Source: a virus
Virus genome (UHGV): UHGV-1332412
Reading direction: 5' to 3' (one strand)
Length of the DNA stretch: 10,167 bases
Both the position numbers and the translations under genes were made by a program. Below the pieces are notes generated by a model. It was not told the DNA's origin. It saw nothing but the letters and a program-made list of their open reading frames with translations, and made no database searches. Shown here in pieces: positions 7,960 to 9,078 of the stretch (positions are counted from its first letter, which is position 1; each line of letters starts with the position of its first letter).

Positions 7960-9078
7960 TTACCCGAGCACGCCGGTTGCAAAGGCGTGATCAAGAAAAC
8001 GAAAAATTAAATCAATCTGGGAACCATGCTTTTCTTCGAACGCCAGCGGATCCGCATGAAGCTCGTTGTGATGCTCCCGACACAGCGGTAGCGTGAAAAT
8101 ATCGTGAGATTTTGTCCCCATTCCGCCCTGACCATGACCAATCAGGTGATGGGGATCGTCGGCTGGCTTACCACAACACGCACACGGCTGTGTCTTCACC
8201 CAGCGTGTGTATTTCTCGTTAACCCAGCGGCGACGTTTAGGTCGTTTCATGAAAGATTCCGGAGACTCAGGATCAACGGCAATGCTGACCACCGTCTTTT
8301 CCTGTGGCGGGTTTTGCTGGTGGGCGTGAGGCAGCGGCGCAAGATTTTTTGTGCGCTGCTTCAGTATGCTGGTGGCGGTCTGCTCTCCCGGTACGATGTC
8401 ACTCTCACGGTATACGGAGCGGATTTTTTCCACCGGTAATCCCAGTGAACGACACAATACAGACTCCGGAAGCGCATCAGCCACCTGATTGCAGACCGCC
8501 CACCAGGATAATTCGGCCAGCGATAACTCCCGCTCCTGCGTACCGCTTATTGCGTGACGGATGACGTCAATCATCCATGCTGACAGGTTTTGATGAGCAA
8601 GTTGCCCGAGTGATTCTGATGTCTGGTCCCGCAACTGGTTGTCACAGTGCCAGCACAACACCATCGCGCCGGTACCGTAACGGTGAATGACGGTTTCACT
8701 GTGATGATAGTCACCATGAGGCCACTGGCAGGATTTAACATGACGCAACAGCCAGTCAGACAGTGCCCCAGCGCCGCCAGCAGCACGAATCACCCGCTCA
8801 TCGCTGAAAAATGGCAGTAATGATTTATCCTCCGCCAGCGGCTGGCGAACGGCAGGGACGACTCCGGACGGCAGACCGCGCATGCTTTTCGGTTCAGGCT
8901 CCACCAGCACTCGAGGGTTATGAAATACTTGCATGGATTCACGGCCCGGCCTAAGGACCACCAGCCCGAGTTCCGGTACCAGAACAGGTCGAAGTAATAT
9001 CCGCACGTTACCTCCAGATCCGTTGCTGGTATGTGCGGGATGGGCGCGGTGGGCGTTCGGAATAAGGGAGCCTGACAT
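7960..9078 (-). CDS. DUF968-like protein with C-terminal HNH-type zinc-finger nuclease motif (YdfU-like); start codon uncertain
   Basis: C-terminal region PCACCGKPADDPHHLIGHGQGGMGTKSHDIFTLPLCREHHNELH has the CxxC...HH...N...C..HH spacing of HNH/His-Me finger domains. The same gene position (upstream of Q) is held by ydfU in the K-12 Qin prophage (by recall). The first ATG at 9078 overlaps the upstream ORF by 70 nt; alternative ATGs at 8937 and 8883; none has a strong SD. Confidence 0.6.
   Translation of the reverse strand: MSGSLIPNAHRAHPAHTSNGSGGNVRILLRPVLVPELGLVVLRPGRESMQVFHNPRVLVEPEPKSMRGLPSGVVPAVRQPLAEDKSLLPFFSDERVIRAAGGAGALSDWLLRHVKSCQWPHGDYHHSETVIHRYGTGAMVLCWHCDNQLRDQTSESLGQLAHQNLSAWMIDVIRHAISGTQERELSLAELSWWAVCNQVADALPESVLCRSLGLPVEKIRSVYRESDIVPGEQTATSILKQRTKNLAPLPHAHQQNPPQEKTVVSIAVDPESPESFMKRPKRRRWVNEKYTRWVKTQPCACCGKPADDPHHLIGHGQGGMGTKSHDIFTLPLCREHHNELHADPLAFEEKHGSQIDLIFRFLDHAFATGVLG

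Follow-up and report, generated by a model that had tools for sequence, protein, structure and literature searches.

Organization of the ydfU locus

We analyzed a 10,167-nucleotide stretch of the virus genome UHGV-1332412 (hereafter, the window), in which a close-packed run of four minus-strand genes, comprising a small open reading frame, ydfU, rusA and Q, occupies the nin-type region of a lambdoid prophage. The features of this run are as follows.

9008..9286, minus strand: upstream small open reading frame, 92 amino acids from the ATG at 9286 (PHROG 1212, E = 7.4e-37; 279-nt homologue annotated by PGAP)
9011..9015, minus strand: Shine-Dalgarno-like GGAGG, 4 nt upstream of the GTG at 9006, read directly from the sequence
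7960..9006, minus strand: YdfU-family coding sequence in its revised extent from GTG 9006, 348 amino acids plus a TAA stop
7588..7947, minus strand: RusA Holliday-junction resolvase gene (Pfam RusA, E = 2.9e-15; PHROG 34, E = 1.2e-55)
6902..7591, minus strand: late-gene antiterminator Q, PF06323 type (Pfam Phage_antiter_Q, E = 8.6e-92; 690-nt homologue annotated by PGAP)

The ydfU reading frame ends 12 nt before the RusA gene, and the ATG of Q overlaps the rusA stop codon (ATGA, also read from the sequence). An earlier, sequence-only reading of this DNA had placed the gene next to RusA in the transition from replication and recombination genes to late genes, and both the adjacency and the placement hold. 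Given the position of ydfU in the nin-type region, delayed-early expression is predicted. The upstream small open reading frame matched no Pfam or PADLOC model, and its identification as Rem was rejected, as it shows no similarity to K-12 Rem.

The window gene is an intact orthologue of Escherichia coli YdfU (Pfam DUF968), a family that shares group 7 of the His-Me fingers with YbcO/DUF1364. Its product is 87% identical over the whole length to K-12 YdfU from the Qin prophage (302/349 identical residues, from residue 1 to the end, with a single 1-residue gap), and it covers positions 1–171 of the 171-position DUF968 profile (PF06147) with E = 5.9e-77 and 258 bits, against a gathering cut-off of 27.8. 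The DUF968-like HNH assignment made earlier is right by this match, which lies far past chance, and by the PHROG 96 profile, labelled 'HNH endonuclease' (E = 1e-174). NCBIfam returned no match for the DUF968 protein, and neither did the PADLOC defence models. The family is large, with 1446 matches in a word-indexed search and 3071 cluster representatives at E ≤ 1e-3, and ydfU-like DNA was found in 4555 of 5426 complete E. coli genomes (84%), including cryptic prophages such as Qin. Its description as essentially uncharacterised applies to YdfU itself but not to its surroundings in the literature: the family is already catalogued, with its fold class and RusA/Q neighbours published in 2017 (PMC5714182), and an HNH-domain relative, ΦNM1 Gp16, was characterised in 2026 (PMC12817073).

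Start codon

The maximal open reading frame was confirmed at 7960..9078 on the minus strand (372 codons). Its start had been left open between 9078, 8937 and 8883; all three are probably wrong, and the ATG given as 8937 in fact lies at 8934. Instead, the best start is probably the GTG at 9006–9004, yielding a protein of 348 amino acids, which we prefer because the homologues, PGAP and the GGAGG site all agree on it. This codon sits 1 nt past the TAA of the upstream small open reading frame and corresponds to residue 1 of K-12 YdfU; the same GTG is the PGAP start in NZ_CP018948, a 96%-identical genome, and position 1 of the PHROG 96 profile aligns to residue 1 of the 348-residue form. Initiation at 8934 or 8883 would remove the N-terminus MRxLLxP..ELGxVxLKPG, which is conserved down to 26% identity and is retained in an alignment of 34 diverse homologues. 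Initiation at 9078 would add 24 residues that are present in no homologue and would overlap the upstream frame. The GGAGG overlaps the last codons of the upstream small open reading frame, which suggests that the two genes may be translationally coupled.

A complete HNH domain at the C-terminus

The C-terminal half of the protein comprises the following features.

7972..8529, minus strand: Pfam DUF968 (PF06147) match, residues 160–345, spanning a helical segment, a low-confidence linker and the HNH domain
8278..8334, minus strand: variable, low-confidence linker from the N-terminal module to the HNH domain, about residues 225–243
7963..8217, minus strand: C-terminal His-Me finger (HNH) nuclease domain of the YbcO/Ref/Gp16 type, residues 264–348
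8056..8184, minus strand: catalytic core, residues 275–317

The C-terminal ~85 residues are a complete zinc-stabilised beta-beta-alpha-metal (HNH) nuclease domain that carries all expected catalytic residues. The AF2 model has a pLDDT of 88.6, dropping below 50 at residues 229–239 of the linker, which is also indel-rich in alignments. A beta-hairpin followed by an alpha-helix in the window protein matches solved HNH nucleases, and the catalytic core combines CCCH zinc ligands (C275, C278, C309 and H312) with the strand-1 histidine pair H286/H287, D302 at the HNH 'N' position, and the helix residues H313 and H317. Of the CxxC...HH...N...CxxHH arrangement proposed earlier, the CxxC (C275/C278), HH (H286/H287) and CxxHH (C309, H312, H313) elements were recovered in the 348-residue numbering, but the asparagine expected between HH and CxxHH is absent; D302 stands in its place, without exception in 34 diverse homologues.

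Column counts in the same 34 homologues establish that the catalytic histidine is present, with H286 retained in 30 and H287 in 31, and H313 and H317 in 30 each. Among the zinc ligands, C275 is found in all 34, C278 in 25 and C309 in 27; the zinc cysteines are lost in one sublineage, yet the catalytic residues are retained there, the pattern expected for selection on catalysis. The HNH part evolves with a dN/dS of 0.055, compared to 0.087 for the whole gene. In the PdcB subgroup of P1 and P7, the HH pair, H313 and H317 are all lost and the protein is still conserved; the family scaffold is therefore of some use even in the absence of catalysis. In P1, pdcB is not an essential gene (PMC10695390).

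A conserved N-terminal module with a probable second zinc finger

Two features were mapped in the N-terminal part of the protein.

8533..9006, minus strand: N-terminal family-specific region, residues 1–158 (PHROG 11007, E = 2.7e-67)
8629..8730, minus strand: probable second, catalytically degenerate HNH-like/treble-clef zinc finger, residues 93–126

Outside the HNH domain, the protein consists of a module that is specific to the family, conserved and subject to purifying selection (dN/dS of 0.08 for the N-terminal part). No Pfam model matches before residue 160, and residues 1–225 are modelled by AF2 with a pLDDT of 88.4. The module seems to contain a second zinc-binding, HNH-like fold without the catalytic histidine, built from two strands (105–110 and 113–118) and a helix (119–125), with C93, H101 (cysteine in most homologues), C118 and C121 (histidine in most) as the proposed ligands.

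Comparison of the N- and C-terminal profiles by hhalign gave no significant evidence of an internal duplication (probability 2.9%, E = 0.015). The register of that alignment paired C93 with C275, C118 with C309, and D122 with H313. Similarly, the N-terminal profile showed no similarity to YbcO, a Foldseek search of the N-terminal model against BFVD returned nothing better than E = 0.3, and PDB sequence searches with the single protein, the full-length profile and the N-terminal profile yielded nothing meaningful. The NinB/Orf-like N-terminus of Gram-positive DUF968/HNHc_6 proteins (PMC4118853) is not applicable here, as the YdfU module has no NinB/Orf match. We discounted database entries in which the N-terminal part of YdfU is joined to a tail fibre, gpJ, portal or capsid domain, attributing them to chimeric assembly or gene calling in prophage-rich genomes.

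Gene neighbourhood across the family

The family-wide constant is the position of ydfU directly upstream of a late-gene activator. Across relatives, ydfU lies directly 5' of either rusA followed by Q or of Q itself, with Q drawn from four Pfam families, and the activator is Lpa in P1/P7. The pairing with RusA proposed earlier is frequent but not obligatory: at least 12 of 22 lineages have a same-strand RusA gene no more than 2 kb away, and the flanks of the other 10 lack one. The count of 12/22 is a lower bound, since it was obtained with a home-made HMM built from 6 seeds that may miss divergent RusA. Read-through fusions of YdfU with Q and of YdfU with RusA also occur; they are rare, and the contigs are too few to serve as evidence of a functional link. 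In the window, about 4.8 kb separates ydfU from the lambda-type Nu1/A terminase genes, an interval that contains Q, four tRNAs, a lysis cassette, bor and a DUF3950 gene.

Relationship to characterized nucleases and prophage genes

K-12 YdfU (b1560), from the Qin cryptic prophage, shares the start and the motifs of the window protein and is likewise encoded upstream of the prophage Q gene. Qin differs in that ydfU directly abuts the Q homologue ydfT with no rusA in between, and in that rem, a gene with no relationship to the small open reading frame of the window, lies upstream.

YbcO and the nuclease domain of ΦNM1 Gp16 are homologues of this HNH domain, which in fold is nearest to P1 Ref. YbcO (DLP12/phage 82, DUF1364, PDB 3G27) aligned with an hhalign E = 3.5e-5 and was the top PDB match, although a weak one, in an hmmsearch with the C-terminal profile. 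YbcO is a single domain of 96 amino acids, whereas YdfU carries ~260 additional N-terminal residues, including the putative second, degenerate HNH-like zinc finger; the 348-residue window protein is longer than a YbcO-type single domain (about 90–100 amino acids) and has no Pfam DUF1364 match at E ≤ 0.1. The gene order in DLP12 is parallel (ybcO-rusA-ylcG-quuD).

ΦNM1 Gp16, from a Staphylococcus aureus phage (Pfam HNHc_6, PF16784), is homologous to YdfU in the HNH domain at 39% identity over 59 amino acids (BLASTP E = 9e-10), with identical CxxC...H...CREHHNExH spacing and the motif CREHHNExH in common. On the window protein, HNHc_6 reached 22.1 bits, below its cut-off of 26.6, and aligned to the HNH part only (profile positions 123–174 of 204), compared to 389 bits for Gp16 itself. 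Like YdfU, Gp16 is encoded among early replication and recombination genes, in a temperate phage that also carries rusA; in contrast to the YdfU module, its N-terminal domain is NinB/Orf-like (PMC12817073). Gp16 is an experimentally demonstrated nickase that is stimulated by RecA, and alanine substitutions of its 'catalytic' histidines relieved toxicity only partly or not at all (PMC12817073). In this branch, a conserved motif is therefore not a fully reliable indicator of function.

P1 Ref (PDB 3PLW; RecA_dep_nuc, PF16786), a RecA-dependent HNH endonuclease, is similar to YdfU in fold only: the window protein had no Pfam RecA_dep_nuc match and no PDB sequence match to 3PLW. Where YdfU has a folded module of 260 amino acids, Ref has a disordered basic N-terminal tail (PMC4330346). 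Since Gp16 and Ref share with YdfU just the HNH domain of ~60–80 amino acids and their targeting regions differ, their RecA dependence is not transferable to YdfU. P1 encodes both Ref and PdcB, the catalytically degenerate YdfU homologue.

The branch-specific endonuclease Rap of lambda (NinG, PF05766) is a His-Me finger protein like YdfU (PMC5714182), and both are encoded in the nin region shortly before Q. YdfU and lambda NinG are not detectably similar in sequence (no Pfam match; hhalign with the C-terminal profile gave a probability of 8% over 13 columns). Neither NinG/Rap nor NinB homologues were found in the flanks of 124 YdfU loci, and the absence of Rap from all of them fits alternative occupancy of one slot.

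Proposed function and alternative explanations

The window encodes a YdfU orthologue with a complete HNH domain, and we consider it probable that this protein is a nuclease acting on phage replication and recombination intermediates. YdfU would be a Mg/Mn-dependent DNA nickase or endonuclease, directed by its N-terminal module to a DNA structure or to a partner such as RecA, not to a base sequence. By working on replication and recombination intermediates it would help the phage to replicate and recombine its DNA ahead of late-gene expression and packaging. In this role YdfU would be comparable to Ref, Gp16 and lambda Rap; it would fill the nin-region slot where lambda has Rap, and would often work alongside RusA without depending on it.

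A more specific version of this proposal is speculative, and we regard it as doubtful in its entirety. Here, YdfU-family members would be tandem His-Me finger proteins, in which an N-terminal 'dead' HNH-like zinc finger, arising from an ancient duplication or capture, now serves to recognise either a DNA structure or a partner protein (RecA or RusA, for example). This finger would bring the active YbcO-type HNH domain at the C-terminus to branched intermediates of replication or recombination, which that domain would nick. Together with RusA, YdfU would then form a nickase-resolvase module that matures phage concatemers just before Q turns on packaging, and P1 PdcB would be a fully dead derivative kept for binding.

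Among the competing explanations, the first holds that YdfU is a host-directed effector, a nuclease that mainly nicks or condenses the host chromosome, thereby stopping host replication and freeing resources. Host DNA had been named as a possible target in the earlier reading, and the idea gains from two relatives: Gp16, with which YdfU has the HNH domain in common, causes growth arrest of S. aureus, nucleoid condensation and suppression of host replication when overexpressed (PMC12817073), and P1 Ref is reported to damage the host chromosome in the SOS response (PMC4713147). We nevertheless judge this explanation unlikely. The presence of ydfU-like DNA in 84% of complete E. coli genomes, cryptic prophages included, argues against strong toxicity of a leaky gene, and conserved placement with RusA and Q in a recombination and replication module is just as compatible with phage DNA metabolism. 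Nor do the two roles exclude each other, as Gp16 has both.

Less likely again is that YdfU is a zinc-finger protein without catalytic activity, which uses the HNH fold only to bind DNA or another protein. Its part in the early-to-late switch would then be structural or regulatory, for instance in modulating Q or Lpa expression or DNA topology. The window protein has all the catalytic residues, as do 30 to 31 of the 34 diverse homologues, and they are kept even in the sublineage that lost its structural zinc ligands, which argues against such a role, although the PdcB subgroup does keep the scaffold without them and the predicted HNH-like fold in the N-terminal part is clearly not catalytic. 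The annotation 'phage transcriptional regulator' has been given to one family member (PMC5714182), but neither Pfam nor NCBIfam revealed a helix-turn-helix or any other regulator domain. The invariable location directly upstream of a late-gene activator, across four Q families and Lpa in P1/P7, would suit a regulator; adjoining Q is, however, typical of many unrelated nin-region genes.

Many phage HNH genes are homing endonucleases or terminase helpers, and the PHROG label reads simply 'HNH endonuclease'. Nevertheless, a free-standing homing endonuclease or a cos-cleavage helper of the terminase, as in HK97 gp74, is a very improbable identity for YdfU. The distance of about 4.8 kb to the Nu1/A genes contrasts with the terminase/portal adjacency of the gp74 type, and a related prophage carries a separate HNH gene beside its P27-type terminase in addition to ydfU. 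Furthermore, a position conserved across very divergent phages, together with low dN/dS over 348 amino acids, is untypical of sporadic homing endonucleases.

Finally, a degraded fusion or pseudogene of two unrelated genes, as might be imagined from the N-terminal 160 amino acids without a Pfam model, the low-confidence linker between the halves, and the truncated and chimeric versions in databases, can be practically dismissed: the frame is unbroken, relatives at 26–95% identity from Escherichia through Klebsiella, Yersinia, Edwardsiella and Vibrio phages to P1/P7 keep the architecture over the full length, dN/dS is about 0.09 or less in both halves, and the apparent fusions, which join tail, portal or capsid fragments, look like assembly chimeras.

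Implications

YdfU is among the commonest E. coli prophage genes and is still a y-gene. The 2017 classification of His-Me fingers reached a conclusion of the same kind as ours (PMC5714182), and the classification of YdfU in the literature is unaltered by the present results. What is gained here is a corrected start codon (GTG 9006, at the strength given above), a domain map for construct design, and a set of residues for mutation. If YdfU is a structure- or RecA-directed nickase like Ref and Gp16, it would add one more nuclease to the recombination toolkit of the lambdoid nin region, and it could affect prophage induction, recombination between co-resident prophages (a process of relevance to how Stx phages, which carry ydfU, evolve), and phage-antibiotic synergy as described for Ref.

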